A stretch of 64,000 nt of DNA from Bacteroidales bacterium (GCA_045130275.1 JBGUPL010000081.1:1270-65269), one strand, 5' to 3'. Positions 5,230-60,044 are shown, numbered from the stretch's first letter. The notes: a model not told the origin generated them from the sequence alone. Program-made: numbers and translations.

Positions 5230-5263
5230 TGAACGGAAAAATCACATATATTTGAAAAAAGAA

Positions 5264-6290: not shown

Positions 6291-6305
6291 AAAAAAACAA
6301 CGAAT

Positions 6306-6641: not shown

Positions 6642-6775
6642 TTACTACGTGTTGATTACTGCGTGTTGATTACTGCGTGTTACCAACAGCGAAGCTAATC
6701 AACATGAAATAACTAACAGCCGAAGGCTAACCAACAGCGAAGCTAACCAACATGAAATAACTAACTTAAATTTTA
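6629..6775. repeat. second ORF-less inverted array
   Basis: Left arm is (CTGCGTGTTGATTA)x3-4 and right arm is TAAYYAACA-hairpin units. It shares the identical 25-nt junction TGCGTGTTACCAACAGCGAAGCTAA with 4753-4777. Confidence 0.85.
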
Positions 6776-10924: not shown

Positions 10925-10952
10925 GGTTATGGGTTAGGGGTTATAGGTTATT
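10925..10952. repeat. heptad array, GGTTAKR flavour, ending GGTTATTGAAGC
   Basis: GGTTATG GGTTAGG GGTTATA GGTTATT. The same GGTTATTGAAGC end occurs at 59911-59922. Confidence 0.7.
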
Positions 10953-11053
10953 GAAGCTTTAGAGAGAGATTCATTATCTTTTTTTTGAGTTTTAGGCCGC
11001 AAAAGTACAAAATTATTTATCTAAAAACGGAATTGATTTTTTTGAAAAAAACG

Positions 11054-23451: not shown

Positions 23452-24306
23452 CTATCGATAATAGAACGTCGTTGTTGTCTTCCGTTCATAAAGCGGGATG
23501 TTCCAGCCGGCTTTGAAGCCGATCATGCCGCTGAATTTAGCTTTCATATTGTCGGTGGGACCTTCGAAAAACACGTAGTTTCGGTTCGGTTTGGTCCATA
23601 TCTCATGAAATTCGAGGCCGATGAACAAGTTCAGCATGCGGTTTTTGCGGACGAACTGGTAGCCTATGAACTGATTGAGTGCGAAACCGCCCGAACGGCG
23701 GTCGTAACCTTTGACATAATTGCCGTCAAGTTGCGGGAACTGGTTACTGTAGTCGTCGAGCCGTAGCCGGTGACTGAAATAGCCTCCACCGATGCGAAGC
23801 CAGATTCCAGAGTTTTTCCATCGGTCAACGGGGATGATTTTGCCGAAATCTGCCTGGACAGTCCAGTAGCGTCCTTCCGCCAAGATGCCACCTGGAGACA
23901 CCAGTCCGTTGCCGTCGATGACGATGCCCTCATCATTGGCCAAGGTGCCGTTGAAGAATGCCGAATCTCGCATGTTGGCGCCAAACATATAGTCGAAATG
24001 GAAACCGACCGTCCAGTTTGACTTTGATTTGAATGTGAATCCCGGCCCGACGGCGAAGTTGCTTTTGAACATTGTACGGAGGTTGCCGAGAGGGAAGTGG
24101 TAGGCGAGGTGAGCATCCAGCCAGATCATCGGGGCTGCCGTGTCAATATAGTCCTTGCTCGAGAAATCTGTCTGATAAACTGGTCTTCTCGATTGAGCGA
24201 CAGCATTCTCCGGCAAGAACAAAGCCAGCGTAACCGCGAAAAAGAGAAAAAGATGCAACAGACAGTAATCTGCCGCATCTTTCTCGGTATGCTTAAAATT
24301 AATCAT
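23452..24306 (-). CDS. predicted outer-membrane beta-barrel protein, unknown function
   Basis: Signal peptide, alternating amphipathic strands and an aromatic C-terminus (TFYYR). Confidence 0.6.
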   Translation of the reverse strand: MINFKHTEKDAADYCLLHLFLFFAVTLALFLPENAVAQSRRPVYQTDFSSKDYIDTAAPMIWLDAHLAYHFPLGNLRTMFKSNFAVGPGFTFKSKSNWTVGFHFDYMFGANMRDSAFFNGTLANDEGIVIDGNGLVSPGGILAEGRYWTVQADFGKIIPVDRWKNSGIWLRIGGGYFSHRLRLDDYSNQFPQLDGNYVKGYDRRSGGFALNQFIGYQFVRKNRMLNLFIGLEFHEIWTKPNRNYVFFEGPTDNMKAKFSGMIGFKAGWNIPLYERKTTTTFYYR

Positions 24307-24330: not shown

Positions 24331-24409
24331 TTGGCTGTTGGCTTTTAGCTATTGGCTTTAAGTATGAATCACTTGCCAACAGCCAATAGCCAACAGCTAA
24401 TAGCCAAAA
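24331..24409. repeat. inverted heptad arms (TTGGCTGTTGGCTTTTAGCTATTGGC ... GCCAACAGCCAATAGCCAACAGCTAATAGCC)
   Basis: Left arm 24331-24356 and right arm 24375-24409 are reverse complements in 7-nt register. The loop is about 18 nt. Confidence 0.8.
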
Positions 24410-25609
24410 CTAGTTCGTGCGTCCTGGATAGACTTTCAGGGCTTCGCGGAGACACTCGACGGCTTTCTCCAAGTCGGAGACGTTGAGGCAATAGCTGATG
24501 CGGACTTCGTTGACGCCTTGGCCTTTCTTGGAATAGAAGCCGGTGGCGGGAGCGAACATCACGGTAGCGCCTTTGTAGCTGAAATCTTCGAGCAGCCAGC
24601 GGCAGAATTTGTCGGAGTCGTCGATGGGCAGACGTGCGACGCAGTAGAAGGCACCCTTCGGCATCGGGACGAAGCAGCCAGGGATGGCGTTCACGCCGTT
24701 GACGATGGTGTTGCGGCGGGCCACATACTCTTTGTTGACGCTGTCGAAATAGACCTTGGGGGTGTCAACGGCGGCCTCACCGAGAATCTGTCCGTAGGAC
24801 GGCGGGCTCAAACGGGCCTGCGCCATCTTCATGGCCGTGGCATAAACTTCCTTGTTATGCGTGATGAATGCACCCACACGCACGCCACATGCACTGTAAC
24901 GCTTTGATACAGAGTCTAAAAGCACTACATTGTCAGCAATGTCGGTCAGTTCCATGACGGAGAAGTGTTTCACGCCGTCATAGCAGAATTCACGATACAC
25001 CTCGTCGGCGAAGAGGAAGAGGTCGTGTTTTTTGGCGATCTCACCCAACTTCAGGATTTCCTCTTTGGAATAGAGGTAGCCGGTGGGGTTGTTGGGGTTA
25101 CAGATCATGATGGCCTTGGTCTTCGGAGTGATGACCTTCTCAAAATCCTCGATGGAGGGCAGCGCGAAGCCGTTCTCGATCGTGGAGATGATGGGTTTCA
25201 CCACCACGCCGCACATCGTGGCGAAAGCGTTGTAGTTGGCGTAGAAAGGTTCCGGGATGATGATTTCGTCGCCGGGGTCCATGCAGCTGTTGAAGGCGAA
25301 AAGGAGGCCTTCGCTGCCGCCGGTGGTGACGATGATCTCGTCAGTGGTGACCTCGATGCCCACGCTGTGGTAGTATTCCACCAGTTTCTTGCGGTAGCTG
25401 AGATTGCCGGCGGAGTGGCTGTAGGCAATCACCGGAATGTCGGCGTTGCGCACGGCGTCACGGGCTCCTTTCGGGGTCTCGATGTCGGGTTGACCGATGT
25501 TCAGATGATAAACGTGAATGCCGCGACTTTTGGCAGCATCGGAGAAGGGAACGAGCTTCCGAATAGGGGAAGACTGCATGCTTGCACCTTTTTGAGAAAT
25601 TTTCGGCAT
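24410..25609 (-). CDS. PLP-dependent aminotransferase (class I, aspartate-aminotransferase-like)
   Basis: SVSKRYSACGVRVG (PLP lysine), NPNNPTG and a typical length of 399 aa. Confidence 0.85.
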   Translation of the reverse strand: MPKISQKGASMQSSPIRKLVPFSDAAKSRGIHVYHLNIGQPDIETPKGARDAVRNADIPVIAYSHSAGNLSYRKKLVEYYHSVGIEVTTDEIIVTTGGSEGLLFAFNSCMDPGDEIIIPEPFYANYNAFATMCGVVVKPIISTIENGFALPSIEDFEKVITPKTKAIMICNPNNPTGYLYSKEEILKLGEIAKKHDLFLFADEVYREFCYDGVKHFSVMELTDIADNVVLLDSVSKRYSACGVRVGAFITHNKEVYATAMKMAQARLSPPSYGQILGEAAVDTPKVYFDSVNKEYVARRNTIVNGVNAIPGCFVPMPKGAFYCVARLPIDDSDKFCRWLLEDFSYKGATVMFAPATGFYSKKGQGVNEVRISYCLNVSDLEKAVECLREALKVYPGRTN

Positions 25610-29756: not shown

Positions 29757-30368
29757 TCATTTCTTTAGAAAAGTATAGCAGAAACCATCATACATTCCGT
29801 CTTCGCACATCGAAAACACTTGCCCCTCTGCCTCGCTGTAACCGAGGGTGGCGAGAAACTTGTGCGGCGTGGCCAACGAAATCTTCCCGTTGAAGGCATC
29901 TGCGATTTTTTTATGTTGCGACTCGGTAAGTCGGAAGCGTATGTTGAACCAGGAATAGAAAGGTTCGTCCTGGTCTCCCTTGTTGGTGTATAACGTTTCA
30001 TCCACGTCATAATCAATGTGATAGGTTCCGGAGACAACCTTCTCGCCATCTTTAAGTAGGGTGAAACTGCTGCCGTTGAAGACGAGTTCGGCCTCGAAAC
30101 CTTCGCTCTCGGGAGTGAACCACACGCCGGCGATGCTTCCCGTAGTAGCGGTCCACCGCCAGGTACCGTCAAGTGCTTTCTTTTCGGGTTTCGTGCATGC
30201 GGTCATCAGGAAAGCGACAGCCACCAGGAGGATGGCTACGCCCCAAACTGCGCTGCGCTTGGGTGTGGTTACTTGCCCTGTCGAGCTCTTGCCCCTTGAA
30301 CTACCCCGTCCTTCGGGCACCCCTTCTAAAAGATGGGGAATGGACTGCTTAAGGAATAATGTTGCCAT
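29757..30368 (-). CDS. lipocalin-like lipoprotein with an unusual 40-aa N-terminal extension
   Basis: Lipobox FLMTAC, then LDGTWRW (lipocalin-like start). The only in-frame ATG (30368) and the first ~35 codons lie in a REP-like element. Confidence 0.55.
   Translation of the reverse strand: MATLFLKQSIPHLLEGVPEGRGSSRGKSSTGQVTTPKRSAVWGVAILLVAVAFLMTACTKPEKKALDGTWRWTATTGSIAGVWFTPESEGFEAELVFNGSSFTLLKDGEKVVSGTYHIDYDVDETLYTNKGDQDEPFYSWFNIRFRLTESQHKKIADAFNGKISLATPHKFLATLGYSEAEGQVFSMCEDGMYDGFCYTFLKK
30267..30359 (-). repeat. expanded copy of the TTCCTTRAGCAG...GGGGCAAGAGCTCGACAGGGCA element, inside the annotated coding sequence
   Basis: Reverse strand reads TTATTCCTTAAGCAG...CCCCATCTTTTAGAAGGGG...GGGGCAAGAGCTCGACAGGGCAAG. 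Compare 34280-34336 and 52458-52500. Confidence 0.65.
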
Positions 30369-30380
30369 AATATAAATTTT

Positions 30381-30899
30381 TTAGTTTCTTAATTTCTTGA
30401 TTCTCATCGCCGTCAGCATCCCTTGTAATTCCGCCCTTGCGCGGGAGAGCAGCACTTTGGAGTTGGCGATGGAGATGTCCAGTTTTTTGGCAATCTGTTT
30501 GTGCGACCAGTGTTCTACCGCATAGAGGTTGAAGACCGTGCGCTGCTTGACACCCAGTTTCTGAATCACCTCCTCGAAATCCTCCCGCGTGAACTCGAAC
30601 CCATCCATCGTTTTTTCCTCTATCTCCTCCACAATTATGTCGGGAAGATTGTCGTCCGCCGCCACCATTTCGGGGCGGTCGCGCAGGTACATCAGCGACT
30701 CGTTGACGGCTATCTTCTTTAGCCACCCCTCGAAACTGCCCCACGCGTGATACGAACTGCCCTTTTCCATCGCCTTCAAGAAAGCGTCCTGCGCCAAATC
30801 CTCCGCCACCTGCCAGTCGCCGATATAGCGATAGCATACGCCCACCATCTTGCCGATGTTGCGTCGGTACTCCTTTGCCCAGAATTCAGCTTTCTTCAT
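30381..30899 (-). CDS. ECF-type RNA polymerase sigma-70 factor
   Basis: Region 2 (DLAQDAFLKA) and region 4 HTH (SHKQIAKKLDISIANSKVLLSRAR). The C-terminal RIKKLRN and the stop codon are encoded by heptads GAATCAA GAAATTAA GAAACTAA. Confidence 0.85.
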   Translation of the reverse strand: MKKAEFWAKEYRRNIGKMVGVCYRYIGDWQVAEDLAQDAFLKAMEKGSSYHAWGSFEGWLKKIAVNESLMYLRDRPEMVAADDNLPDIIVEEIEEKTMDGFEFTREDFEEVIQKLGVKQRTVFNLYAVEHWSHKQIAKKLDISIANSKVLLSRARAELQGMLTAMRIKKLRN

Positions 30900-31899: not shown

Positions 31900-33171
31900 A
31901 TGCAGAAACAGCCGTTAGCAGAGATCCTTCGCCCGCACTCTATTGAGGGCTACATCGGTCAGGAGCACCTGATGGGTGAGGGGGCGGTGTTGCGCACGGC
32001 CATCGAGAGCGGCAACATCCAATCGATGATCTTCTGGGGACCGCCGGGCGTGGGCAAAACGACTCTCGCACTGTTGATTGCGCAATCCATCGACGCGGAG
32101 TTTTTCACACTCAGCGCCATCAGCAGCGGCGTGAAGGACATTCGCGAAGTCATCGACAAGGCCAAGAAGTCCGAAAAACGCTGCATCCTCTTCATCGACG
32201 AAATCCACCGCTTCTCCAAGTCGCAGCAGGACTCGCTGCTCGGCGCGGTGGAGCAGGGCGTGGTCACCCTCATCGGCGCCACCACGGAGAACCCCTCTTT
32301 CGAAGTCATCTCCCCGTTGCTCTCCCGCTGTCAGGTTTATGTTTTGAAAGAACTTTCCAAAGATAATCTTGAGCAGCTGCTGCAAACCGCTATCGGTTAT
32401 TTGGAAGGGCAGATGAACTGCAAAATCAAATTGGAGAACACGGAAGCCCTGATGCGCATTTCCGGTGGAGATGCCCGTAAACTACTGAATGCTATTGAAT
32501 TAGTGTCTTGGATGACCCCGCCTGTGGATGGCGTCATTACGCTCACCCGCGAGCAAATCATCCATGTCATTCAGCAGAATTTGGCGCTTTACGACAAGAA
32601 GGGTGAACAACACTACGACATCATTTCCGCGTTCATCAAGTCGTTGCGCGGCAGCGACCCCAACGCCGCGGTCTATTGGATGGCTCGGATGCTGGTGGCC
32701 GGAGAGGACCCGCTCTTCATCGCCCGACGCATGGTCATCCTCGCATCCGAAGACATCGGCAACGCCAACCCCAATGCGCTGTTGCTAGCCAACAACTGCT
32801 TTCAGGCAGTGAACGTCATCGGGATGCCGGAAGCGCGCATCGTGCTGTCGCAAACAGCTGTGTATCTGGCCTCTTCGCCCAAGAGCAACGCCTCCTACAT
32901 GGCCATTGAGAATGCCTACGGGCTTGTCAAGCAGACCGGCGACCTCTCCGTGCCGATGCACATCCGCAACGCCCCGACCAAGCTGATGAAGGAACTCGGC
33001 TACCACAAGGGCTACCAATACGCTCACGATTACGAACACAATTTCGTGAATCAGGAGTTCCTGCCCGAGCAGATTGCGGGTACGAAACTCTACGAACCGC
33101 AGAACAATCCTCGCGAAAACGAACTGAGACGCTATCTGAGAAGCTGTTGGAACGAGAAATACCGCTATGTG
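31900..33171 (+). CDS. rarA: replication-associated recombination protein A (AAA+ ATPase), lacking its own stop codon
   Basis: Walker A GPPGVGKTT, Walker B ILFIDEIHRF and the MgsA C-terminal helical domain. The frame continues uninterrupted into the next module. Confidence 0.85.
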
Positions 33172-34182
33172 ATGCTGTTGCTGGCAGCACTGACTTTTTT
33201 TTTTAAGATAACTTTCGCCCAAGATTATCACTTTTCCCAATTTTATGCTAACCCGACAGGTGTGAATCCCGCATTGACGGCAGCTTTCGATGGCGTGGTG
33301 CGTGGTTCTGTCATTATGCGCTCACAATGGCTGGCGGTTTCCAAGCCGTTTATGACGATGGGCGCAGAGGTCGATGGCGCGGTCTATAAGAACCATCGAC
33401 GGCAGGAATTGTTGGGCCTCGGGCTCACGTTCAACGGCGACAAGGCCGGCGATGTGAATTATCGTTCCGTGCAGGCGGTGTTGTCAATGTCGTACATCAA
33501 AAACATTGGCCGCCACAGCCGTCACAAACTCGGACTGGGACTATACGGGGGCATCATCAATAACCATTTTGATGTGGATCCCAGTACATGGGATATGCAG
33601 TTCGTGGATGGTGTTTTCTATCCCTATCTTCCTAGTGGTGAGAATTTTGAGACAATCCAACGACTGTACGCGGATTTCGGCGCGGGAGCGTTTTGGAGCT
33701 TTTTGCCCACCAAGACGGTGCTCTTGCGGGCTGCAGTCAGTGCCTCGCATATCAACCGACCATTCTATGGCTTCGGGGAGAGCAATGCGCGGCTGCCCGT
33801 GAAGTACACCGCCCATTTCTATTCGCAGATTGCTCTTAGTCGCGAAATCTCTTTGTCTCCAATGTTTTACGCTTCCTGGCAACGTTCGCTCAGCGAGTAT
33901 TTGTTCGGATGTAATGTGGAATATTTCAACAAGAAAAACAGCTATACCACGCTTTATACGTTAGGCGGCGGACTCCTTTACCGATGGAATGATGCGCTGA
34001 TTTTCAATGGATTTGTGAGTTGGCAGAATCTCCGCTTCTCCATCGCATACGATGTCAATGTGTCGCCGTTTGTGGTGGCTACGCACGGGCGCGGCGGTCT
34101 GGAAATCGCCGTGTCTTACATTTTCAAGAAGAGGACTATTACGAGGATTGGGAAGGAACCGTGTCCGTATGACATTATGTAA
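33172..34182 (+). CDS. PorP/SprF-family type IX secretion membrane protein (in frame with rarA)
   Basis: Internal ATG at 33172 opens a signal peptide MLLLAALTFFFKITFAQ, followed by the family N-terminal motif DYHFSQFYANPTGVNPALTA. Confidence 0.75.
   Translation: MLLLAALTFFFKITFAQDYHFSQFYANPTGVNPALTAAFDGVVRGSVIMRSQWLAVSKPFMTMGAEVDGAVYKNHRRQELLGLGLTFNGDKAGDVNYRSVQAVLSMSYIKNIGRHSRHKLGLGLYGGIINNHFDVDPSTWDMQFVDGVFYPYLPSGENFETIQRLYADFGAGAFWSFLPTKTVLLRAAVSASHINRPFYGFGESNARLPVKYTAHFYSQIALSREISLSPMFYASWQRSLSEYLFGCNVEYFNKKNSYTTLYTLGGGLLYRWNDALIFNGFVSWQNLRFSIAYDVNVSPFVVATHGRGGLEIAVSYIFKKRTITRIGKEPCPYDIM
33195..33204 (+). repeat. T10 homopolymer in the PorP-like signal peptide codons
   Basis: ACT TTT TTT TTT AAG. 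Either +1 or -1 slippage creates an immediate TAA stop. Confidence 0.9.
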
Positions 34183-34279
34183 TGGTTAATGGTTAAAGGT
34201 TAAAGGTTAATGGTTAAAGGTTAATGGTTAAGGGTTAAGGGTTAAGGGTTAGTGTTTAAGGGTTAATGGTTAAGGGTTA
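34183..34279. repeat. heptad array (GGTTAAW / GGTTAAG)x~13
   Basis: Begins immediately after the TAA stop. Each unit carries TTAA, which places TAA on both strands. Confidence 0.9.
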
Positions 34280-34336
34280 TTCCTTGAGCGGCCCCGGTAG
34301 GGGCAAGAGTTCGGTAGGGCAGGTCGGAGGGTTAGC
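34280..34336 (+). repeat. REP-like half element TTCCTTGAGCGGCCCCGGTAGGGGCAAGAGTTCGGTAGGGCAGG
   Basis: GCCCC-GGTA-GGGGC hairpin plus the CGGTAG linker. Paralogues at 5264, 52458, 12108 and 30267. Confidence 0.75.
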
Positions 34337-34351
34337 AAATTCAAAGAGAAA

Positions 34352-35980
34352 ATGAAGAGCAAATCGTTTATAATAAGGAATTTATGTGTTGCCGTTATGG
34401 TGCTGTCCTTGTGGAATTCTGCTGGGGCTCAGAGCGGCGATGCATCTGTTCTGCCCACAACGGATTCTATTATCGTGACGATAAAACCCTTGCCTTCAGC
34501 CATAAATTCACATTTTTCGGAGTATGCTTGTCGGTTGTTGCCGGATTCCACTTTTTTGTTCACTTCTCTGCGCAACGATGCAGCTGAAGATCTTGAACAT
34601 TTCTTTGAAACCAACTGGTACTGTTATATTTACGAATCCAAAGCGATGCCGGAAAGGAGGTTCACGCCCGCAAAACCGCTGCCGTCGAGCGTTAATCATC
34701 CCAAGTATTTCAACAGCAATTTCTGTCTGAGTGAGGATGGGCAGCGGATGATTTTGACGCGTTGTGTGCGGGTAGGGGAGGGCGATTTGCACTGCGACCT
34801 GTGGCATACGGAAAAAGGTGGAAAAGGTTGGCAAAAGCCCAAACGGTTGCCTTCGGTTGTCAATGAAAACAACAGTTCCACGATGCAACCATGGCTGGTG
34901 CAAACATCTGATTATGAGATACTTTACTTTGTGTCTGACCGCCCTGGCGGGTACGGGAAGACCGATATTTGGTATTCTATTTTCAAAAACGGACATTTTC
35001 AGGAACCGGTCAACCTCGGGCCAATCATAAATACAGAAGGTGATGAGGTTACCCCGTTTTACGACAAAACCCATAATATGCTCTATTTCAGTTCTGACGA
35101 ACATCACAGCATGGGCGACTTCGATATTTTTTGCAGTGAGGGCGCTTTGGGAGGATGGCGGCCTGTACAACACCTTGACAAACCGTTTAATTCTGTCTAT
35201 AATGATTTTTATTTTGTTGTAAATCAGGATAATACAACCGGTTTTTTCTCTTCTAACCGTCCGTATCGCGATGTGGTGAGCGATGACACTTGTTGTAACG
35301 ATATTTTCTATGTGGATTGGAAACTTCCTGAGAAAGAGACTATTGTCGCCGAAACGCTCCCTACCGTTCATGAAAAAATCGCCTCTGTGCTGCCGATCAC
35401 GCTCTATTTCCAAAACGACTGTCCCGACCCGAAGTCTGTTTCCGACACTACCGCCAAAGACTATTTGGAATTATATAACACCTATATCGGTGATATTCAG
35501 GAATATATCCACAAGTCTGGCGAAGGATTGTCAGGTGAAGAGCAGCGCCGGGCCATGTACGCAGTGGCGGGGTTCATGTGCGACTCCGTGCAAACAGGCT
35601 ATGCACGTTTACAGCTTCTGCAACAGTATCTTACAGAAGCGATGGCGAACGGCGACACTGTGGATTTGGTCATCAGTGGATTTGCCAGTCCGTTGCATAA
35701 CAGCGAATATAACAAGCATTTATCTTCCCGAAGAATTGTCAGTCTGCTGAATTATTTGAAAAAGGCCGACAATGGGGTACTGGTCCCATATATTACAGGA
35801 AAGAAATCGGGACTGCGGTTGTATGTTTATCCGGAAGGGGCTGTGAATCACTCTTTTGAGACCGATGAGGTACGCGAGACGGTTTTTGGTTTGCGTGCCG
35901 CCAAGGACCGTAAGATTATTATTGCCAGTCCTGTCAAAAACAACGCGACCAACCATCCGCAGAAGATATCGAACGGGTAA
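34352..35980 (+). CDS. periplasmic PD40/WD40-like repeat protein with OmpA-like C-terminal domain
   Basis: Signal peptide and TolB-like PD40 repeats (DIWYSIFKNGHFQEPVNLGPIINTEGDEVTPFY). OmpA-like end (ISGFASPLHNSEYNKHLSSRRIVS). The usual partner of PorP-family genes. Confidence 0.7.
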   Translation: MKSKSFIIRNLCVAVMVLSLWNSAGAQSGDASVLPTTDSIIVTIKPLPSAINSHFSEYACRLLPDSTFLFTSLRNDAAEDLEHFFETNWYCYIYESKAMPERRFTPAKPLPSSVNHPKYFNSNFCLSEDGQRMILTRCVRVGEGDLHCDLWHTEKGGKGWQKPKRLPSVVNENNSSTMQPWLVQTSDYEILYFVSDRPGGYGKTDIWYSIFKNGHFQEPVNLGPIINTEGDEVTPFYDKTHNMLYFSSDEHHSMGDFDIFCSEGALGGWRPVQHLDKPFNSVYNDFYFVVNQDNTTGFFSSNRPYRDVVSDDTCCNDIFYVDWKLPEKETIVAETLPTVHEKIASVLPITLYFQNDCPDPKSVSDTTAKDYLELYNTYIGDIQEYIHKSGEGLSGEEQRRAMYAVAGFMCDSVQTGYARLQLLQQYLTEAMANGDTVDLVISGFASPLHNSEYNKHLSSRRIVSLLNYLKKADNGVLVPYITGKKSGLRLYVYPEGAVNHSFETDEVRETVFGLRAAKDRKIIIASPVKNNATNHPQKISNG

Positions 35981-38640: not shown

Positions 38641-38711
38641 AGGTCTCGTCCAGATTCGAACTGGAGTCAACGGTTTTGCAGACCGGTACCTAACCACTCG
38701 GCCACGAGACC
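38641..38711 (-). tRNA. tRNA-Cys (GCA)
   Basis: Hand-folded cloverleaf. Acceptor GGTCTCG/CGAGACC, anticodon loop CTGCAAA, T-arm TCCAG-TTCGAAT-CTGGA, discriminator U73 and a G13:A22 mismatch typical of tRNA-Cys. No encoded CCA. Confidence 0.9.
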
Positions 38712-38882: not shown

Positions 38883-39317
38883 CTATTTCACCGGGTACGG
38901 CACCACGATATCGTCGCAGTACTCACAGCGGTAGGAGCGTTTCTCCTTGTCAACGAGGTGGAATACATGCGGGAAGTAGTGCTCCACGGAGGTGACGCAG
39001 CGCGGGTTTTTGCAACGGATGATATTTTCCACGCGGTCGGGCACTTCCAGTTTCACTTTCTTGATGGTCTTCCCCTCCTCGATGATGTTCACCGTGGCGT
39101 TCGGGTCGATCAAACCGAGGAAGTCGTAGTTGATGTCGATGACATTGTTGATTTTGATGATGTCTTTCTTTCCCATCTTTTCGCTGTAGGCGTTGCAGAT
39201 GAGCGCGACATTATAATCGGCCTTGTCAAGGTTCAGATAATTGAACACTTGGATGCCGTAGCCGGCGGTAATGTGGTCGATGACAATACCTTTTTCTATA
39301 CTGGTGATTTCTAACAT
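38883..39317 (-). CDS. pyrI: aspartate carbamoyltransferase regulatory subunit
   Basis: Start set at MLEITSIEKGIVIDHI. Zinc domain CKNPRCV...CEYC. The upstream part of the track ORF (FKFKSKFKFKSKSK) is translated repeat. Confidence 0.85.
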   Translation of the reverse strand: MLEITSIEKGIVIDHITAGYGIQVFNYLNLDKADYNVALICNAYSEKMGKKDIIKINNVIDINYDFLGLIDPNATVNIIEEGKTIKKVKLEVPDRVENIIRCKNPRCVTSVEHYFPHVFHLVDKEKRSYRCEYCDDIVVPYPVK

Positions 39318-39333
39318 GATGATTTTTTCTTTT

Positions 39334-39373
39334 GACTTAGACTTAAACTTAAACTTAGACTTAAACTTAAACC
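39334..39373. repeat. hexamer array (ACTTAG ACTTAA ACTTAA)x2
   Basis: 6-bp units with an 18-bp super-period in the pyrB-pyrI spacer. Confidence 0.8.
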
Positions 39374-39414
39374 AGTGACCATTGACTATATTCCATTCCA
39401 ACAAACACACAATT

Positions 39415-39434
39415 CACTGATCACTGATCACTGA
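39415..39434. repeat. heptad array (CACTGAT)x3
   Basis: Located directly after the pyrB stop. Confidence 0.75.
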
Positions 39435-39438
39435 AAAC

Positions 39439-40362
39439 TTAATAAATGCCTAAAAGTTTCAAGATCAACGCCATACGCACATACATGCCGTTTTTGGCTT
39501 GTTGGAAGTATTGCGCTCTGGGATCGTCATCGACTTCGGTGCTGATTTCGTTGACGCGCGGCAGCGGGTGCAGGATGTAGGTGTCGGGACGGGCGTAGGA
39601 CATCTTCTCCTTGTCGAGGATGAAGCGGTCTTTCAGGCGGATGTAGTCCTCTTCGTTAAAGAAGCGTTCGCGTTGGACACGGGTCATGTAGAGGAAGTCG
39701 AGTTGGTTCATATAGGGCTCCATTTGATCAACCTCTTCGAAGGGGATGCCTTTTTTGCGGACTACTTCCTCGCGGATGTATTCCGGCACGCGCAGTTCCT
39801 CGGGGGAGATGAAGATGAAGCGGACACCCTCGTAGTTGCTGAGGAACTTGACGAGGGAGTGCACGGTGCGGCCGAACTTGAGATCACCGCAGAAACCGTA
39901 GGTTTTGTTTTCCACACTTCCACGAAGCCGTTCGATGGTGAGGATGTCGGTGAGGGTTTGTGTGGGGTGCTGGTGGCCGCCGTCGCCGGCGTTGATCAAC
40001 GGCATGTGGATGTAGTGGCTGGCCAGACGCGGGGCGCCCTCCTTGGGATGACGCATCGCCGCGATGTCGGCGTAGCATTCCACGGTGCGGAGTGTGTCAG
40101 CGATGCTCTCACCCTTCGCGGTGGACGAGGACGCGGCTTCGGAGAAACCGATGACCTGGCCGCCCAAACGCAGCATGGCCGTCTCGAAACTTAGGCGCGT
40201 ACGGGTGCTCGGCTCATAAAAAAGAGTTGCCAGGATCTTGCCTTCGCAACTCTTGCTGTACTTCGCCGGATCGGCGATGATCTGGTGACCCAAATCGAAA
40301 ATTTCGCGGAATTCCTCGCGCGTGAAATCGTTCGGGTCGATCAAACTTCTGTTTTTTAACAT
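39439..40362 (-). CDS. pyrB: aspartate carbamoyltransferase catalytic subunit
   Basis: STRTR, HPTQ and HPLPR motifs. Confidence 0.92.
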
Positions 40363-46925: not shown

Positions 46926-46970
46926 CCAACAGCCAACAGCCAATAGCCAATAGCTAATAGCCAACAGCTA
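46926..46970. repeat. heptad array, CCAAYAG flavour
   Basis: CCAACAG CCAACAG CCAATAG CCAATAG CTAATAG CCAACAG CTA. Contains the nadK stop codon. Confidence 0.85.
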
Positions 46971-47834
46971 ATCGTTCCTTTTGTCCAACCCCCACAGCAG
47001 TTTTTCGCGGATGGTGGCGTAGAAGTTGGCGTTGTCGAACAGCACCGTACGGATGGTGAACTGCTCTTTGGTGATGTGCAGTTTGACGTTGTCGTTAAGG
47101 ATAACTCGCTGCGTGTCAACACATAGGGAATATCTTCCGCCGCGCCCTTGCACGGTAATGTCCAATTCTTGCGATGCCGGGATGACTAATGGGCGGACGC
47201 TGAGCGAGTGGGACGCGATAGGGGTGAGCACTACCACGTCGGTCTGCGGGTGCAGGATGGGGCCGCCGCAGCTCATCGAGTAGGCCGTCGAGCCCGTCGG
47301 GGTGGCCACAATCAGACCGTCGGCCCAATAAGTGTTGATGTGCTGTCCGCCGGTTGAGACGGAGATGGCGTTGATGGAGTCGCTGTCGGTGGCACGGATG
47401 GTCACGTCGTTCACTACGAAGTGTGTGTCCAAGGACAGGGGCTCGCTGCCCTCGATGTGGAGCAGCGAGCGCGATTCCAAGGTGTATTGTTGATTGAGAA
47501 GCATGCGTATGCAAGCTTCAAAGTTGTCTTTTTTGATGGCTGACAAAAAGCCAACGCGCCCAGTATTGATGCCCACCAAGGGGATTCCGAGGTCGCCGAT
47601 TAAGTTGGCGGCGTCGATGAACGAGCCGTCACCCCCAATGGAAATCATAAAGTCCACATTGCCAATATGTTGCAGGTCCAAATATGACTCAAATCGCTGA
47701 ATTTCAGTGTTTTGGCATGAAATATTATTGTGCGCCATCACCCTGCAACAGTTTTTTTGCAAAAGGGCGACGACCGAGTCGATAAGGGTCTGCGGTCCGG
47801 CACCGGGACGGCTGTAGAGCGCGAACGTGAGCAT
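46968..47834 (-). CDS. nadK: NAD+ kinase
   Basis: Start set at MLTFALYS (TAATG overlap with the buk stop). Motifs GGDGSF and ATPTGSTAYSMSCGGP. Confidence 0.88.
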   Translation of the reverse strand: MLTFALYSRPGAGPQTLIDSVVALLQKNCCRVMAHNNISCQNTEIQRFESYLDLQHIGNVDFMISIGGDGSFIDAANLIGDLGIPLVGINTGRVGFLSAIKKDNFEACIRMLLNQQYTLESRSLLHIEGSEPLSLDTHFVVNDVTIRATDSDSINAISVSTGGQHINTYWADGLIVATPTGSTAYSMSCGGPILHPQTDVVVLTPIASHSLSVRPLVIPASQELDITVQGRGGRYSLCVDTQRVILNDNVKLHITKEQFTIRTVLFDNANFYATIREKLLWGLDKRND

Positions 47835-49397: not shown

Positions 49398-49432
49398 GGC
49401 TTTTAGCTATTCGCTTTTGGCTTTTAGCTGTC
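49398..49432. repeat. heptad array, GCTNTTR flavour (complement of CCAAYAG type)
   Basis: GGCTTTTA GCTATTC GCTTTTG GCTTTTA GCTGTC. Confidence 0.7.
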
Positions 49433-49484: not shown

Positions 49485-49799
49485 ATGGCATTAGCAATTA
49501 ACAATGAGAATTTTGAGACCCTGATTAAGGGCGACAAATTAGTCGTCATCGATTTCTGGGCAACCTGGTGCGGCCCGTGCAGAAGCATCGCTCCCATCGT
49601 GGAGGAGGTCGCCGCCGAGTTTGAAGGCAAAGCCGTGATCGGCAAGTGCGACACCGACGAGAACGGCGACATCGCCATGCAGTTCGGCATCATGAACATC
49701 CCCACGCTGGTCTTCATCAAGAACGGCGAGCTCGTTGACCGTCACGTCGGCGTGATCAAGAAAGAGGAGCTGGTGGCGAAAATCAACCAACATCTGTAA
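49485..49799 (+). CDS. trxA: thioredoxin
   Basis: Active site WCGPC in a 104-aa protein. Confidence 0.95.
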   Translation: MALAINNENFETLIKGDKLVVIDFWATWCGPCRSIAPIVEEVAAEFEGKAVIGKCDTDENGDIAMQFGIMNIPTLVFIKNGELVDRHVGVIKKEELVAKINQHL

Positions 49800-49826: not shown

Positions 49827-51491
49827 ATGAATACAGCTTTATTAATTTGTATCATCGGAACGATTGTCATCATTCCGTTTTTGATTTACTATGTGCGTGA
49901 GGCCAAGCTGCATCACCCTAAGGGCTTGATTGCCGCTGCTTTGAGCAACATGGGCGAGCGTTTTGGTTACTACATCATGAACGCCGTGCTCCTACTCTTC
50001 CTCGTCTCCAAATTCGGCTTGCCCGACGGCACCGCTGGCGTCATCTATTCCGTCTTCTACTTCGGTATCTACGTGCTGAGCTTGGTGGGCGGTATCATCG
50101 CCGACAAGACCCAGAACTACAACAAAACCATCCAATGGGGTTTGATCATCATGGCCATCGGCTACGTGGTGATGGCTATCCCGTTGTTCAGCAAGACCGC
50201 CGAGGGCGCTATCCTCGACAGCGGCGCAGGTTGGTGGACCATCCTCATCATCACCTGTATGGCGTTGTTGTTCATCGCTTTCGGTAACGGTTTGTTCAAA
50301 GGTAACTTGCAGGCTATCGTCGGCAAATTGTACGATGAGTTTGAAGCCGAGGCTGCCAAGAAAGGCCCCGAGGCTCTCGCGGAAGCCAAGGATCGTCGCG
50401 ATTCCGGTTTCCAGATTTTCTACGTTTTCATCAACATCGGCGGTTTCTTTGCCCCGTTCATCGCCCCGTTCCTCCGCGAATGGTGGCTGAAGGCGCATCA
50501 CCTCATCTATAACGCCGACATGTCCGGTCTCTGCCACCAGTTCCTCGCTGATGGCCAAGCAACCCAGAAGTTCACTGAAACGATGGCCGCAGTACTGCAA
50601 CCCGGCTACAATTTCACTGACACTGCCGCTTTCTGCTCTGACTATATCACCGTGTTCAACCAAGGTGTGCACTTCTCCTTCATCGCTTCTGTTTTGGCAA
50701 TGGCCATTTCATTGGTTATTTTCCTGACCAACAAGTACAAACTGCCGCAGCCGGCCAAAAAACAGCAAGCTGAAGTGGTGGAATACACCGCAGAGGAGAA
50801 ACTCGCCATGGCAAAGGAAATCAAACAACGTTTGTATGCTTTGTTTGCAGTATTGGGTATTGCTGTCTTCTTCTGGTTCTCTTTCCACCAGAACGGTCAG
50901 TCTTTGTCTGTGTTCGCCCGCGACTTCGTGCAAACGGAAAAGATTGCTCCCGAGATTTGGCAAGCTTTGAACCCGTTCTTCGTGATTGTGCTCACGCCTA
51001 TCATCATGGTCGTTTTTGCGGCTCTGGCTCGCAGAGGAAAACCCATCTCCACGCCTCGCAAGATTGCCATCGGTATGGCTATCGCTGGATGTGCATATCT
51101 TTTCCTGATGATTATCTCCATCGTGAACAATTATCCGTCAGGTACAGAGTTCCGCGCTATGGATGCTGCACAGATGCTCGCCGCTGGTCTTGCCAAAGCC
51201 GCTCCTTGGGTGTTGCTTGTCACCTATTTCTTCCTGACCGTTGCTGAACTGTTCATCTCCCCGCTGGGTCTGTCGTTCGTCTCCAAGGTGGCTCCGCGCC
51301 ACATGGTAGGCTTGTGTCAGGGTTTGTGGCTTGGTGCCACCGCTCTCGGCAACCTGCTGATCTGGCTTGGCCCTGTGATGTACAATGCTTGGCCGATCAA
51401 ATACTGCTGGGCTGTGTTCGCCGTGGTCTGCTTCGTTTCCATGGCCATCATGCTCGGCATGGTGAAATGGCTGGAGCGCGTGACGAAATAG
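49827..51491 (+). CDS. proton-dependent oligopeptide transporter (POT/PTR2 family)
   Basis: GERFGYY motif in TM1 and an MFS topology of about 14 TM helices. Confidence 0.85.
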   Translation: MNTALLICIIGTIVIIPFLIYYVREAKLHHPKGLIAAALSNMGERFGYYIMNAVLLLFLVSKFGLPDGTAGVIYSVFYFGIYVLSLVGGIIADKTQNYNKTIQWGLIIMAIGYVVMAIPLFSKTAEGAILDSGAGWWTILIITCMALLFIAFGNGLFKGNLQAIVGKLYDEFEAEAAKKGPEALAEAKDRRDSGFQIFYVFINIGGFFAPFIAPFLREWWLKAHHLIYNADMSGLCHQFLADGQATQKFTETMAAVLQPGYNFTDTAAFCSDYITVFNQGVHFSFIASVLAMAISLVIFLTNKYKLPQPAKKQQAEVVEYTAEEKLAMAKEIKQRLYALFAVLGIAVFFWFSFHQNGQSLSVFARDFVQTEKIAPEIWQALNPFFVIVLTPIIMVVFAALARRGKPISTPRKIAIGMAIAGCAYLFLMIISIVNNYPSGTEFRAMDAAQMLAAGLAKAAPWVLLVTYFFLTVAELFISPLGLSFVSKVAPRHMVGLCQGLWLGATALGNLLIWLGPVMYNAWPIKYCWAVFAVVCFVSMAIMLGMVKWLERVTK

Positions 51492-51546: not shown

Positions 51547-51620
51547 AATGTAGAATTAAGAATGAAGAATTAAGAATGAAGAATGAAGAATGTAGAATGA
51601 AGAGTGTAGAATATGGAGTG
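51547..51620. repeat. heptad array, GAATKAA flavour
   Basis: AATGTA GAATTAA GAATGAA GAATTAA GAATGAA GAATGAA GAATGTA GAATGAA GAGTGTA GAATATG. Confidence 0.85.
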
Positions 51621-51719
51621 TTTGGAGGAGGTTGATATTTTTCGTTGTTTGAAGGGCGTGGAGTCTCAAAAAAATATATTTTTGCTGTCGATTTTGTGAG
51701 ATAATCTAATTAATCGTAT

Positions 51720-52403
51720 ATGAGCAAAAAAGTTTTTCAGGTTTTGGGGCTGTTTGTCTTTTTGTGTATGTTGGCCCTGACCGCCAGCGCCCAGTGGTCG
51801 TTAGGCATCAAAGGCGGGTGGGATTACACCTCCATCACGCGGTCCAACGCGGGTCGAATTGATGAAACCTATTCTCCGCTAAGCGGTTACGATGTCGGCA
51901 TACAGGCCCGTTACGGTTTCACCGACTGGTTCGCCCTCCGCGCCGACCTCAGCGTGATGCGCCGCTCCCACCGCATGGACCGCCACCTCGACTACCTCGA
52001 TTCGCTCTACACCGAGCATCATAACCTCTACCTGATGCTTCCGGTGTTGGCCGACTTCTCCTTCGGAGGCGAGCATTTCCGCGGCCATGCCATGCTCGGC
52101 GGCTATGTCGGCTATTGGCTGCAAGACCATATCAAGGGCAAAACTTACTGGATGACAGACTATTGCATGTATTACAACCCCTTTGACGAAAAGCGTCTGT
52201 TCACGCAGGAGGACCGCCGTTTCAATGCCGGATTAGTTGGAGGTCTTGGCCTGAGCTACCGTTTCACCGAGCATTGGGGCCTCAACCTCGACGCACTCTA
52301 CTACTACGACCTCGTCAGCCACCGCCGCAGCTCCCCGCACCTCCGCGACCCCCGTTACCTTAGCACGTTGTCTGTCACCTTTGGCGCATCATACGTTTTC
52401 TAG
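51720..52403 (+). CDS. outer-membrane beta-barrel (porin-family) protein
   Basis: Signal peptide, alternating strands and a C-terminal SYVF. Confidence 0.7.
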   Translation: MSKKVFQVLGLFVFLCMLALTASAQWSLGIKGGWDYTSITRSNAGRIDETYSPLSGYDVGIQARYGFTDWFALRADLSVMRRSHRMDRHLDYLDSLYTEHHNLYLMLPVLADFSFGGEHFRGHAMLGGYVGYWLQDHIKGKTYWMTDYCMYYNPFDEKRLFTQEDRRFNAGLVGGLGLSYRFTEHWGLNLDALYYYDLVSHRRSSPHLRDPRYLSTLSVTFGASYVF

Positions 52404-52441
52404 GCAATAGGCAACAGGCAACAGGCAACAGATAACAGGCG
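52403..52441. repeat. heptad array, GGCAAYA flavour
   Basis: GGCAATA GGCAACA GGCAACA GGCAACA GATAACA GGCG, starting on the TAG stop. Confidence 0.85.
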
Positions 52442-52457
52442 AATGATTTAAGACATT

Positions 52458-52500
52458 TTCCTTGAGCAGCCCCGATAGGGGCAAGAGCTTGGTAGAGCAA
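52458..52500 (+). repeat. REP-like half element TTCCTTGAGCAGCCCCGATAGGGGCAAGAGCTTGGTAGAGCAA
   Basis: Near-identical to 34280-34322. Confidence 0.8.
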
Positions 52501-52553: not shown

Positions 52554-53819
52554 ATGAAAAAAATCATCACAATAGTAGCAATACTCGTCCTGGTATTCAC
52601 CTCCTGCCGCAAGGAGGCCGACCACATGCCCTACATCGGCGAGAACGGCAAATTAGCCTACAGCACCTACACCGAACAGTTCGACTACCTCTGGAGAGTC
52701 CTCAGCACGGGTTATGTTTTCTGGGATGTCGATACCACCGACTGGGATGCGATGTACGAACGTTATCTTCCTGCATTCCAAAAACTTGATGAAAAGTACG
52801 AACAACAGGGTTACGTGCCGACGGATGAGTTGCAGACCCTCTATACGGGCTTGGTGGGCGGTCTGGTTGACCATCATCTGACATTCAGAGTCAAGAATTT
52901 GCATCCGGCACCCAGTGATCAAAGCTCTGCGGTGAGTGTCACCCCGTACGCGTTGGAGATCCCCACCCGCGACTACTATTACGAGTCGGCTGGCGAAGAA
53001 AATCAGGGAATCCAAATTTTCCTGCAAAACATTGAGAATCAATATACTGTCGAAACGCACGAGTCGTGCGTGGCGTATGCACCCGAGTTAGGGATGACCA
53101 TCACATACCACTATATCCTTTTCCGTTTGCCTGACGGTCGGAAGATTCCCTACCTGTGGCAGTCTTCGGCGGGTATCACGCCGGTGATGCTTCAAGGGGG
53201 CGATGGGGCGCGGTTGTTGGACCACTACTTCCGGGCCATTATGGAGACTCCCCGCGAGCAGTTGGCCGGCATCATCCTCGACAACCGCTGCAACCGAGGC
53301 GGCTACCAGGACGATCTTGACTACTTGGTCGGCAGTTATCTCAACCAGAAAACGGAGATTATCAAAACGCGTTACAAAGAAGGCCCTGGTCGTTACGAAT
53401 ATTCCCCGTGGACTTCTTATTGCCAGAGCCCGATTACTCGCTACCATCGTGATATCACGGCGGAAAACATCCCATACGTTGTGCTTTGCGATATCAATTC
53501 GGTGAGTATGGGTGAAATCGAGCCGATGGTCATCAAGGCGGTGCTGCCCACGGCGCATACCATCGGCGAGCGCACGCACGGCGGCACGGGACCGCTGCAG
53601 CCTGCCAACTGCATCGACCTCAACTACGGCGGTCCGTTCGGAACTTCGAATCTGTCTGTGGGACACTACGTCTATACCTCCACCTTCGAGGCGCAGATCA
53701 GCGGCAAAGTCTGGGAGGGCATCGGCCACACCCCCGACGAGATCGTCCTCCGCAAAGACCACAACGGCGATTTCAAACCGCAATTGGACGCGGCGTTGGA
53801 ATATATTATCGGCTATTAA
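52554..53819 (+). CDS. S41-family peptidase-like lipoprotein
   Basis: Lipobox FTSC. DNRCNRGGY and a later INSVSMGE...K pattern resemble the S41 Ser/Lys region. The call is moderate. Confidence 0.55.
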   Translation: MKKIITIVAILVLVFTSCRKEADHMPYIGENGKLAYSTYTEQFDYLWRVLSTGYVFWDVDTTDWDAMYERYLPAFQKLDEKYEQQGYVPTDELQTLYTGLVGGLVDHHLTFRVKNLHPAPSDQSSAVSVTPYALEIPTRDYYYESAGEENQGIQIFLQNIENQYTVETHESCVAYAPELGMTITYHYILFRLPDGRKIPYLWQSSAGITPVMLQGGDGARLLDHYFRAIMETPREQLAGIILDNRCNRGGYQDDLDYLVGSYLNQKTEIIKTRYKEGPGRYEYSPWTSYCQSPITRYHRDITAENIPYVVLCDINSVSMGEIEPMVIKAVLPTAHTIGERTHGGTGPLQPANCIDLNYGGPFGTSNLSVGHYVYTSTFEAQISGKVWEGIGHTPDEIVLRKDHNGDFKPQLDAALEYIIGY

Positions 53820-53891: not shown

Positions 53892-53920
53892 CAAATAGCC
53901 AACAGCCAATAGCCAAAAAA
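53892..53920. repeat. heptad arm (AAATAGCCAACAGCCAATAGCCAAAAAA)
   Basis: Inverted partner of 53811-53846. Confidence 0.7.
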
Positions 53921-53923
53921 TAG

Positions 53924-53931
53924 TATCTTTG
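53924..53931 (+). promoter_or_regulatory. -7 promoter box TATCTTTG
   Basis: 43 nt upstream of the ATG at 53974. Confidence 0.6.
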
Positions 53932-53973
53932 CCGTCGCATTTTCGAAATACAGTAATAAAAACGTCAAATAAT

Positions 53974-57682: not shown

Positions 57683-57765
57683 AAATGGTTAACGTTTTCT
57701 ATTCACCGCTGCAAATGTACACTTTATTCGGGAATTTTCGACATTCTTTTGATTATTCTTGAATA

Positions 57766-57831
57766 GGCAAAAGGCAAAAGGCAAAAGGCAATAGGCAACT
57801 GCCAACAGCTAACAGCCAACAGCCAATAGCC
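57766..57831. repeat. heptad array switching flavour (GGCAAAA x3 > GGCAATA > GCCAACA/GCTAACA x4)
   Basis: Continuous 7-bp register. Its right part encodes the last residues and the stop codon of dcp. Confidence 0.85.
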
Positions 57832-59851: not shown

Positions 59852-59858
59852 TTTTTAA

Positions 59859-59922
59859 AGGTTAATGGTTAATGGTTAAAGGTTAAAGGTTAATGGTTAA
59901 AGGTTAATGGTTAAAGGTTATT
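59859..59922. repeat. heptad array (GGTTAAW)x8, ending GGTTATTGAAGC
   Basis: Same flavour as 34183-34279. Confidence 0.9.
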
Positions 59923-59946
59923 GAAGCCTGATTGCTTTTCTCTTTT

Positions 59947-59980
59947 CACTGCTCACTAATCACTAATCACTAATCATCAC
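59947..59980. repeat. heptad array (CACTAAT)x3-4
   Basis: CACTGCT CACTAAT CACTAAT CACTAAT CATCAC. Confidence 0.8.
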
Positions 59981-59986
59981 AAACAA

Positions 59987-60014
59987 TATAGAGACGCCAA
60001 AACTGACGTCTCTA
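59987..60014 (-). terminator. TAGAGACG...CGTCTCTA hairpin after skp (family copy 3)
   Basis: ATAGAGACG-CCAAAACTGA-CGTCTCTAT. Confidence 0.55.
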
Positions 60015-60044
60015 TCATATATATATTACATTAACAATACGAGG

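Follow-up and report, generated by a model that had tools for sequence, protein, structure and literature searches.

We analyzed a 64,000-nucleotide stretch of DNA, hereafter called the window, from a rumen bacterium of the order Bacteroidales (GCA_045130275.1, JBGUPL010000081.1:1270-65269), focusing on a tandem array of a 7-nt unit that lies between two genes at positions 34180 to 34279, and on the arrays of the same period that recur in the window and throughout the genome. The assembly comprises 3.19 Mb in 134 contigs, with a GC content of 50.6% and a completeness of 96%. Gene boundaries were taken from our own crude codon-usage caller of open reading frames (ORFs), whose stops are exact and whose starts are approximate. 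The focal locus is organized as follows.

31900 to 34182, plus strand: ORF in which MgsA/RarA AAA+ domains continue in frame into a PorP/SprF domain; the array opens with the stop codon of this ORF
34180 to 34279, plus strand: focal array, 14.3 copies of TAATGGT (equivalent to GGTTAAW), G-rich and C-free on the sense strand
34280 to 34336, plus strand: short-type TTCCTTGAGC element centered on a GCCCC/GGGGC hairpin, directly next to the array; the next gene follows after 16 nt
34352 to 35980, plus strand: gene with PD40/TolB-like repeats, downstream of the focal spacer

The first TAA of the array thus serves as the stop codon of the upstream ORF, and TTCCTTGAGCGGCCCCGGTAGGGGCAAGAGTTCGGTAG follows directly 3' of the array, from position 34280. 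This confirmed an earlier reading of the window (the original prediction) in which a porP-like stop codon was followed by GGTTAAW units and then by an element. The same order of stop, array and element had been proposed for three other places, and it was indeed present at 5207 to 5345, at 52402 to 52495 and, on the minus strand, at 30402 to 30267.

5207 to 5229, plus strand: 3.3 copies of GTAGTTA, overlapping the stop codon of hypA (4876 to 5223)
5264 to 5345, plus strand: TTCCTTGAGC element, long type, with additional GAAG-loop hairpins
30267 to 30356, minus strand: copy of the TTCCTTAAGC element, whose loop holds a second hairpin repeat
30375 to 30402, minus strand: 3.5 copies of a period-8 unit at the stop codon of an extracytoplasmic function sigma factor gene (30381 to 30899)
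52402 to 52440, plus strand: 5.6 copies of AGGCAAC, beginning at the TAG stop codon of an outer membrane beta-barrel protein gene (51720 to 52403)
52458 to 52495, plus strand: TTCCTTGAGC element, short type, upstream of an S41 peptidase gene (52554 to 53819)

Period 7 dominates the tandem repeats of the genome

When the whole genome was scanned with Tandem Repeats Finder (TRF), period 7 was by far the dominant repeat period, with 829 rows against at most 340 for any other (340 for period 9, 246 for 14, 234 for 12, 197 for 8, 149 for 6, 142 for 10, 8 for 5 and 6 for 4). The period-7 arrays add up to 30 kb and comprise 165 flavours after strand and rotation had been made canonical, with a median of 4.4 copies and a maximum of 27.7. 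According to our gene calls, 84% of the array bases are intergenic, while intergenic DNA represents 13.4% of the genome. Together, the arrays with periods of 7, 14 and 21 occupy 6.4% of the intergenic DNA, and about 40% of the spacers of 100 to 250 nt contain an array. The autocorrelation of intergenic bases reached 0.305, 0.294, 0.293 and 0.279 at lags 7, 14, 21 and 28, over a background of about 0.268; in coding DNA, it revealed period 3 only. Both the TRF census and the autocorrelation therefore bear out that the enrichment in period 7 greatly exceeds chance and is not confined to the window.

Arrays are mostly intergenic and frequently abut stop codons

The proposed association with gene ends was also found. 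When an array is paired with a gene 3' end, the two touch or overlap in 36.5% of cases and are at most 5 nt apart in 46%, the corresponding values for 5' ends being 9.5% and 21%. In tandem spacers, the median distance from the array to the upstream stop codon is 8.5 nt, and that to the next start codon is 37 nt. The stop codon lies within an array in 251 of 2425 genes, and in 90 more the array begins at most 6 nt away from it; 50 start codons are found inside an array and 103 have an array within 6 nt. Arrays are nevertheless not specific to gene 3' ends, being present in 25.7% of tandem, 21.8% of divergent and 21.5% of convergent spacers, of which they cover 8.8%, 3.4% and 4.1% of the bases, respectively.

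We then considered the promoter-like box TAnnTTTG. It occurs in 24.5% of the tandem spacers that carry an array versus 38% of those that do not and, because of this lower frequency, many arrays are probably located within polycistronic RNA. Of the boxes that are present, 60 are located downstream of the array, 21 upstream of it and 10 within it.

G and C are distributed between the strands according to the neighboring gene

The dominant regularity of these arrays, missed by the original prediction and already published for other bacteria (see below), is a G/C strand polarity. Arrays abutting a stop codon contain 26% G and 9.5% C on the sense strand, with G exceeding C in 163 cases and C exceeding G in 7. 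In arrays abutting a start codon, the sense strand contains 4.2% G and 26.6% C, with G exceeding C in 8 cases and C exceeding G in 92. The ratios of G-rich to C-rich arrays in convergent (69:22) and divergent (38:57) spacers agree with this rule, and the corresponding ratios in relatives were 30:8 at stops and 5:9 at starts.

Several explanations could be discarded. The polarity is not carried over from local base composition, since repeat-free DNA after stops and before starts is unskewed, and it is not an artefact of gene calling, since arrays absorbed into the ends of called ORFs obey the rule as well. A replication-strand bias was likewise ruled out, as array orientation follows the direction of the genes (111:25) and is unconnected to the sign of the GC skew (62:74). 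G-quadruplexes do not account for the polarity either. No stop-adjacent unit contains GGG, and 112 of 171 are devoid of GG and CC and yet keep the polarity. Units devoid of GG and CC give ratios of 98:1 at stops and 4:31 at starts; quadruplexes are therefore not needed. Finally, the idea that arrays provide a structure-free leader was rejected because they fold slightly better than their shuffled copies (-0.103 versus -0.062 kcal/nt, the value for other intergenic DNA being -0.153 kcal/nt).

With respect to translation signals, NTG start codons are found in 7 to 8% of the units on the strand that is read into the neighboring gene, versus 44 to 50% on the outward strand. Stop triplets in the sense direction are present in 84% of the start-adjacent and 75% of the stop-adjacent arrays.

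Stop triplets are enriched but do not explain the period

The original prediction had stated that most flavours contain a stop triplet, and this holds beyond what composition would give: 62.7% of the arrays have one on a given strand, compared to 47.8% for units with shuffled letters and 49.3% under a first-order cyclic Markov null, and 43% have stops on both strands versus the 24 to 28% expected. Seeding of the arrays at stop codons is not sufficient to explain this, since the enrichment persists more than 30 nt away from stops and in divergent spacers. By type, the excess is strong for TAA/TTA (z = 13.5), lower for TAG/CTA (z = 4.8) and absent for TGA/TCA, which is at expectation (z = 1.6), and several triplets that are not stops are biased as strongly, GGC/GCC reaching a z of 18.

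The proposal that arrays act as stops in all frames was thus upheld in part. In its favor are the enrichment itself and the fact that about 10% of the genes use a stop encoded by an array. Against it, TGA is not enriched, the bias of non-stop triplets is equally strong, arrays also abut about 150 starts, the 21.8% of divergent spacers with arrays have no 3' end, and convergent spacers are not richer in arrays than tandem ones. Nor does the indivisibility of 7 by 3 account for the period, since periods of 4, 5, 10 and 11 would serve equally well and yet are rare. Stop-richness thus does not explain the period; it looks like one facet of a wider sequence preference or filter.

Arrays differ in length, unit and period at orthologous sites

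The closest genomes available are uncultured rumen Bacteroidales metagenome-assembled genomes (MAGs). We compared orthologous spacers around the gene encoding an M3 peptidase (57809 to 59851, minus strand) and at the focal locus. Upstream of the M3 peptidase gene, a conserved terminator hairpin is followed by arrays that reach the start codon; congeners harbor from 0 to about 25 copies of differing C-rich units there, some of period 8 or 9, and two congeners with identical flanks (loci L024 and L026) differ in having 10.6 and 4.6 copies. On the 3' side of this gene, compound arrays encode the last four to five codons and the stop codon in some species, while in array-free relatives the stop adjoins the conserved TAnnTTTG promoter box of the next gene. 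At the focal PorP/PD40 spacer, an array starts from the stop codon itself in about 15 congeners and is missing from more distant ones; the units fit the stop codon in use (TAA-TGGTTAT, TAG-TTAGTAG and TGA-AGGTTAA). Overall, unit, period (6, 8 or 9) and copy number vary at the M3 peptidase and PorP/PD40 spacers, and some congeners are array-free. These differences, in particular the unequal lengths within identical flanks, are in good agreement with the alternative suggestion of the original prediction that the arrays are slippage-prone spacers.

Array density also differs among genomes. Per 80 kb, we counted 20.8 period-7 TRF rows in the genome under study, 24, 28 and 13 in three close congeners, 5 to 14 in other congeners and 0 to 7 in other families. 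Loss of mismatch repair was ruled out as a cause, since MutS1 and MutL are intact here and in 38 of 41 congeners at any array density.

As a separate observation, the terminator-like hairpin TAGAGACGnnnnnnCGTCTCTA with its T-run (59985 to 60040), which follows the gene upstream of the M3 peptidase gene, is kept across congeners (loci L021 to L032). Its GTAGAGACG stem is also found at other loci and may belong to a dispersed terminator family.

PF05635 genes lie between complementary arrays

The genome contains seven strong matches to PF05635 (23S_rRNA_IVP), a family regarded as Avd-like (PMC10053308). Six or seven of the seven lie between a G-rich array on the 5' side and a complementary C-rich array on the 3' side, and all 19 copies found in two congeners have complementary array arms as well, while only 17 of 2494 called genes of any kind are flanked in this way. 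The flanking units all differ from one another (GGCAACA, GGCTGTT, CAGTGAA, GGTTAAA, GCAGTTA, GAATGYT and a 14-mer) and match the main flavours of the genome. All copies are located between protein-coding genes and none within a helix of the 23S rRNA. One copy of this cassette type, elsewhere wrapped by heptad arrays, lies in the window.

1145 to 1846, plus strand: ORF 1219 to 1653, encoding a PF05635 four-helix bundle, flanked by repeat arms made of 14-mers (left) and 34/48-mers (right)

The product of this ORF matches PDB 2GSC, which is XCC0516 of Xanthomonas campestris. We also observed that two spacers of the hyp operon (4681 to 4865 and 6196 to 6752) harbor arrays with a period of 14 to 16 nt (ACTGCGTGTTGATT, then ACCAACAGCGAAGCTA) as inverted arms, similar to those around ORF 1219-1653 but free of any ORF.

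Across genomes, cassettes with the same unit are syntenic orthologues and paralogues of 40 to 70% identity have other units, while close paralogues at nonsyntenic loci have similar units. PF05635 copy number correlated with array density among 16 related, and hence not phylogenetically independent, genomes (Spearman 0.92). We also sampled 29 Bacteroidia genomes from different families; 14 of the 18 with PF05635 and 2 of the 11 without it had arrays of at least three copies (Mann-Whitney P = 0.003 for genomes with at least six copies against those with none). A proportionality between array density and copy number was not seen in these 29 genomes, where only presence versus absence holds, and array density in this sample was about eight-fold below that of the present lineage.

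The known contexts of this family differ from the one described here. The intervening sequences of 23S rRNA, for example in Coxiella burnetii (S23p/PF05635; PMC4990558), are likewise long hairpins whose loop contains a small four-helix-bundle ORF; here, however, the hairpins lie between protein-coding genes and their arms are heptad arrays. Avd, the accessory protein of diversity-generating retroelements, belongs to the same family (PMC10053308), but an origin from a reverse transcriptase or such a retroelement was ruled out, as no RVT_1 match was found in this 96% complete genome. No link between PF05635 and heptamer repeats was found in the literature searched.

The TTCCTTGAGC element is an independent repeat with a preferred side for arrays

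The TTCCTTGAGC element is present in about 64 intergenic copies with the consensus TTCCTT(G/A)AGCAGCCCCGnnAGGGGCAAGAGCTCGGTAG. Its central 5-bp GC stem (GCCCC/GGGGC) is supported by a single compensatory change, with UA in place of CG in 4 of the 32 copies aligned; covariation was looked for in the outer stem as well, and none was convincing. Longer variants include additional hairpins, or their loop holds a second repeat. This second dispersed hairpin repeat, CCATTCCCCTTCTTTTAGAAGGGGTGCCCGAAGGGCGGGGTAGTA, was observed inside the loop of the element or alone beside it (at 30267 to 30356 and many other loci). In 49 of the 64 copies, the element is co-oriented with the downstream gene, 50 to 150 nt before its start. 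Heptad arrays were found 41 times 5' of the element and 4 times 3' of it, and spacers contain an array in 66 to 94% of cases if the element is present versus 36 to 38% if it is absent. Of 15 close congeners, no more than 3 carry the element at the focal site. The co-occurrence of stop, array and element is real and polar, and we read the composite as two independent repeats. The element would mark the start of the constrained region upstream of the next gene, and arrays would be confined to its 5' side because that region comprises the element together with all that follows it.

In several respects, the TTCCTTGAGC element and the recurrent array composites described below resemble repetitive extragenic palindromes, bacterial interspersed mosaic elements (REP/BIME) and BOX-type elements: a short GC hairpin, dispersed intergenic copies, modular nested variants with a mosaic order of modules, and presence or absence that differs among congeners. 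Unlike REP/BIME, the element flanks no RAYT/Y1 transposase gene, is strongly co-oriented with the downstream gene and has an outer stem without covariation. A link to RAYT proteins was ruled out, since no copy of the element lies within 800 nt of any of the six PF01797 matches in the genome. When the window was scanned against Rfam, no family matched the element, and the sole match was a tRNA gene (38641 to 38711, minus strand).

The boundaries of the arrays were also compared. The outer flanks of arrays of the same flavour are mostly unrelated. At 13 unrelated loci, including 10940 to 10955 and 59915 to 59926, GGTTAT-type arrays terminate in GGTTATTGAAG(C), and another 13 loci show the succession RGCTDTT array, CACTGGCGAGAAA, GACTWW array, in constant order and orientation. 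In addition, 11 inverted pairs of RGCTDTT arrays have the G-rich arm first each time. Such conserved boundaries suggest that entire composites have been copied between loci.

Other arrays and features of the window

Further arrays of the window are listed below.

10925 to 10951, minus strand: 3.9 copies of GGTTATG (sense CATAACC, C-rich), by the start of an ABC transporter gene (9133 to 10917)
24331 to 24407, minus strand: inverted pair, 3.9 copies of TTGGCTA and 4.7 of GCCAACA; a hairpin is possible
39414 to 39434, minus strand: 3 copies of TCACTGA, filling the 28-nt spacer between genes 39439 to 40362 and 38883 to 39410
46926 to 46972, minus strand: 6.1 copies of CCAACAG (sense CTGTTGG), overlapping the stop codon of gene 46968 to 47834
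49399 to 49429, plus strand: array just 5' of the TAtcTTTG promoter-like box of gene 49485 to 49799
51547 to 51621, plus strand: 9.4 copies of AATGAAG, after gene 49827 to 51491
53897 to 53916, plus strand: 2.9 copies of AGCCAAC, immediately 5' of the TAtcTTTG box of gene 53929 to 55371
57765 to 57831, minus strand: two array blocks, sense GGCTGTT and then GCCTTTT, encoding the last codons of the M3 peptidase and its TAG stop codon (57809 to 57811)
59855 to 59920, minus strand: 9.4 copies, sense AACCTTT/AACCATT, G-free, ending about 4 nt before the start codon of the M3 peptidase gene
59953 to 59976, minus strand: 3.4 copies of TCACTAA, between the terminator hairpin of the upstream gene and array 59855 to 59920

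On the sense strand, the inverted pair at 24331 to 24407 is G-rich after the stop codon of gene 24410 to 25609 and C-rich before the start codon of gene 23452 to 24306. Array 10925 to 10951 terminates in the recurrent junction GGTTATTGAAG. Most of the positions at which the original prediction had placed heptad flavours were correct. Several arrays are not heptads, namely, those at 26202, 30381 and 36518 (period 8), 29058 (period 14) and 39335 (period 6).

The ORF upstream of the focal array is itself unusual. It encodes a complete MgsA/RarA AAA+ ATPase (amino acids 1 to 416) and a PorP/SprF membrane domain of type IX secretion (amino acids 439 to 740) without an intervening stop, and the PorP part starts with its own methionine and the signal-peptide-like MLLLAALTFFFKITFAQ. 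The ORF probably represents either two genes, with the rarA stop codon lost or missing, or a case in which PorP is translated from the internal start. Outside the window, an array of four CAATGTA units recurs in several very large ORFs (contigs C76, C31, C85 and C13), always about 160 to 170 nt before the stop codon, and may be located in a common C-terminal domain.

Relation to known heptamer repeats

Tandem heptanucleotides, termed STRR, were reportedly described in cyanobacteria by Mazel and coworkers in 1990. They are said to form heptamer families dispersed in the noncoding DNA of one lineage, as the present arrays do, and to differ from these in phylum and units. A closer parallel is offered by Rehm et al. 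2015 (PMC4692102), who reported G-rich heptameric simple sequence repeats (SSRs), namely, GGGAATC in Xanthomonas campestris and Xanthomonas axonopodis and GGGGA(C/T)T in Nostoc PCC 7120. About 90% of them are intergenic, mostly between co-oriented ORFs and under-represented between divergent ones, and the G-rich strand is in sense orientation within 50 bp after stops (overlap with the stop included) and in antisense orientation within 50 bp before ORFs (PMC4692102). These repeats form convergent inverted pairs, their length and sequence vary at the same sites among close relatives, most of them are transcribed, and their polarity was interpreted through G-quadruplexes (PMC4692102). The arrays described here share with them the 7-nt unit, the intergenic location, the preference for co-oriented ORFs, the polarity, the inverted pairs and the variation among relatives. 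They differ in comprising about 165 AT-rich, stop-rich flavours rather than one G-rich unit, in having no tracts of three or more G at stops, and in being several times as dense (829 arrays in 3.2 Mb versus about 186 in X. campestris pv. campestris). The link to PF05635 found here is not mentioned by Rehm et al. (PMC4692102).

According to the survey of Mrazek, Guo and Shah (2007), as far as it is summarized in PMC4679880, heptanucleotides are the commonest among long SSRs with units of 5 to 11 nt, for which polymerase slippage was proposed. Those SSRs resemble the present arrays in their sporadic, lineage-specific excess and their noncoding location; within that summary, this rumen Bacteroidales lineage is absent and neither polarity nor abutment to gene ends is described (PMC4679880). 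MacGregor 2015 (PMC4679880) described direct repeats of the heptamer TAACTGA in Beggiatoaceae, cyanobacteria and five Bacteroidetes. Like the present arrays, they are intergenic, provide stops in three frames in the forward orientation and are absent in closest relatives, and in Gramella and Aequorivita other heptamers occur in the same spacers; they also lie by start codons (PMC4679880). In contrast, the present genome has many units and longer arrays, mostly at stops rather than at starts, and membership in the TAACTGA family was ruled out because TAACTGATAACTGA, the TAACTGA doublet, is found on neither strand of the genome. Overall, the arrays are a very dense new member of a known, unexplained class of polar heptamer SSRs.

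How the arrays may have arisen

Our preferred reading, to which we give a probability of about 0.55, is that the arrays turn over by slippage-type events in the free DNA that separates a stop codon from the signals of the next gene, and are filtered by the neighboring translation signals. In this compact genome, the stretch in which they lie, from the stop codon to the next promoter or start codon, is the only DNA that can be dispensed with. As the sequences of congeners show, among which copy number, unit and even period change, the arrays arise and are resized in place; the engine would be replication slippage or unequal exchange. Selection from the neighboring genes would then determine the arrays that persist: those that are G-poor on the strand leading into a gene would offer almost no NTG starts and mostly TAA stops there, and those that are G-rich on the strand leading out of a gene would offer stops in all frames. 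As outward arrays would supply such stops, their growth up to or over a stop codon would be harmless, and the arrays would not be a dedicated stop device. Several points weigh against this reading. We infer the selective filter, and the depletion of C after stops has no proven cost; the model gives no reason for the period of 7; recurrent composites with conserved junctions are not explained by pure slippage in place; and the close link to PF05635 genes is a hint that some specific agent, and not generic slippage, is at work.

Such an agent would be provided if the arrays were the cis elements (arms, solo arms or footprints) of transposase-free hairpin cassettes with PF05635/Avd-like four-helix-bundle genes, whose nucleic-acid-binding protein would create, spread or stabilize heptad arrays in trans, each paralogue with its own unit. 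The rarity of complementary flanks outside the PF05635 genes of this genome (6 to 7 of 7) and its two congeners (19 of 19), the tracking of array density by copy number in the 16 related genomes, which are not independent, the presence-absence association in the Bacteroidia, the similar units of close paralogues at nonsyntenic loci and the recurrent composite "grammar" of the arrays all argue for it, as does the match of the window copy to a protein of X. campestris, the species of the GGGAATC repeats. However, there are hundreds of arrays for at most 11 cassettes per genome, some abundant flavours, among them AAGAATT and AATTATC, have no cassette in the assembly, and Bacteroidia with 6 to 12 PF05635 genes have only about one array per 40 kb, so that copy number does not set density. 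Furthermore, the same-unit cassettes being syntenic orthologues, conservation of their arms can be explained by descent; no mechanism is known, the genome has no reverse transcriptase, and the cassettes might simply settle in existing array hairpins. We therefore regard a cassette-driven origin as unlikely. The broader view that PF05635 proteins make, spread or maintain the arrays, and that the heptamer SSRs of Xanthomonas, cyanobacteria and Bacteroidota are the cis component of a widespread, transposase-free element made of a protein and a repeat, with a 7-nt unit proper to each paralogue, seems to us just as doubtful.

Less probable still is that the arrays are selected translational insulators, with stops in all frames after genes and, before genes, a leader free of start codons and with TAA in every frame. 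Bacteroidota start translation without Shine-Dalgarno pairing, and a leader free of starts would be useful there. This view gains from the enrichment of stop triplets past composition, also far from stops and in divergent spacers, from the start-adjacent arrays, 84% of which have sense stops and only 7% any NTG, from the polarity that is kept while units drift, and from the stop encoded by an array in 10% of the genes. It suffers from the lack of enrichment of TGA and the equal bias of non-stop triplets, from the rarity of the equally serviceable periods 4, 5, 10 and 11, from the many congeners that are array-free at the same site with no visible compensation, and from stops being already frequent in AT-rich spacers; moreover, GGGAATC of Xanthomonas obeys the polarity (PMC4692102) and yet, when the unit is read directly, has no stop on either strand. 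Signals acting at the level of RNA, in which G-rich outward arrays, C-rich inward arrays and their hairpin pairs would serve as RNase III-type processing stems like those of rRNA intervening sequences, as 3' stabilizers, or as sites that load or block a termination factor or an RNA-binding protein, would fit an orientation that tracks transcription and not replication, the shortage of promoter boxes in array-bearing tandem spacers, the 11 RGCTDTT inverted pairs with their G-rich arm first, and the transcription of most of the repeats of Rehm et al. (PMC4692102). We nonetheless find them the least convincing candidates, as the folding of the arrays is neither exceptionally weak nor strong (-0.103 kcal/nt), their presence is not conserved among congeners, and the Rfam scan of the window gave no match for them. 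Cyanobacteria, which share the polarity, are not known to possess Rho, and this also counts against such signals.

Implications

As far as the survey summarized in PMC4679880 goes, heptanucleotides are the commonest class of long SSRs in bacteria, and their period and their polarity relative to genes are without explanation. The genome studied here, in which about 14% of the genes end at or in an array, is an extreme case. A polarity that does without G-quadruplexes removes the sole published structural rationale and points instead to a filter exerted by start and stop codons or to a specific protein partner, PF05635. Finally, these arrays break assemblies and shift predicted C termini and start codons, which is relevant for the annotation of rumen Bacteroidales MAGs.

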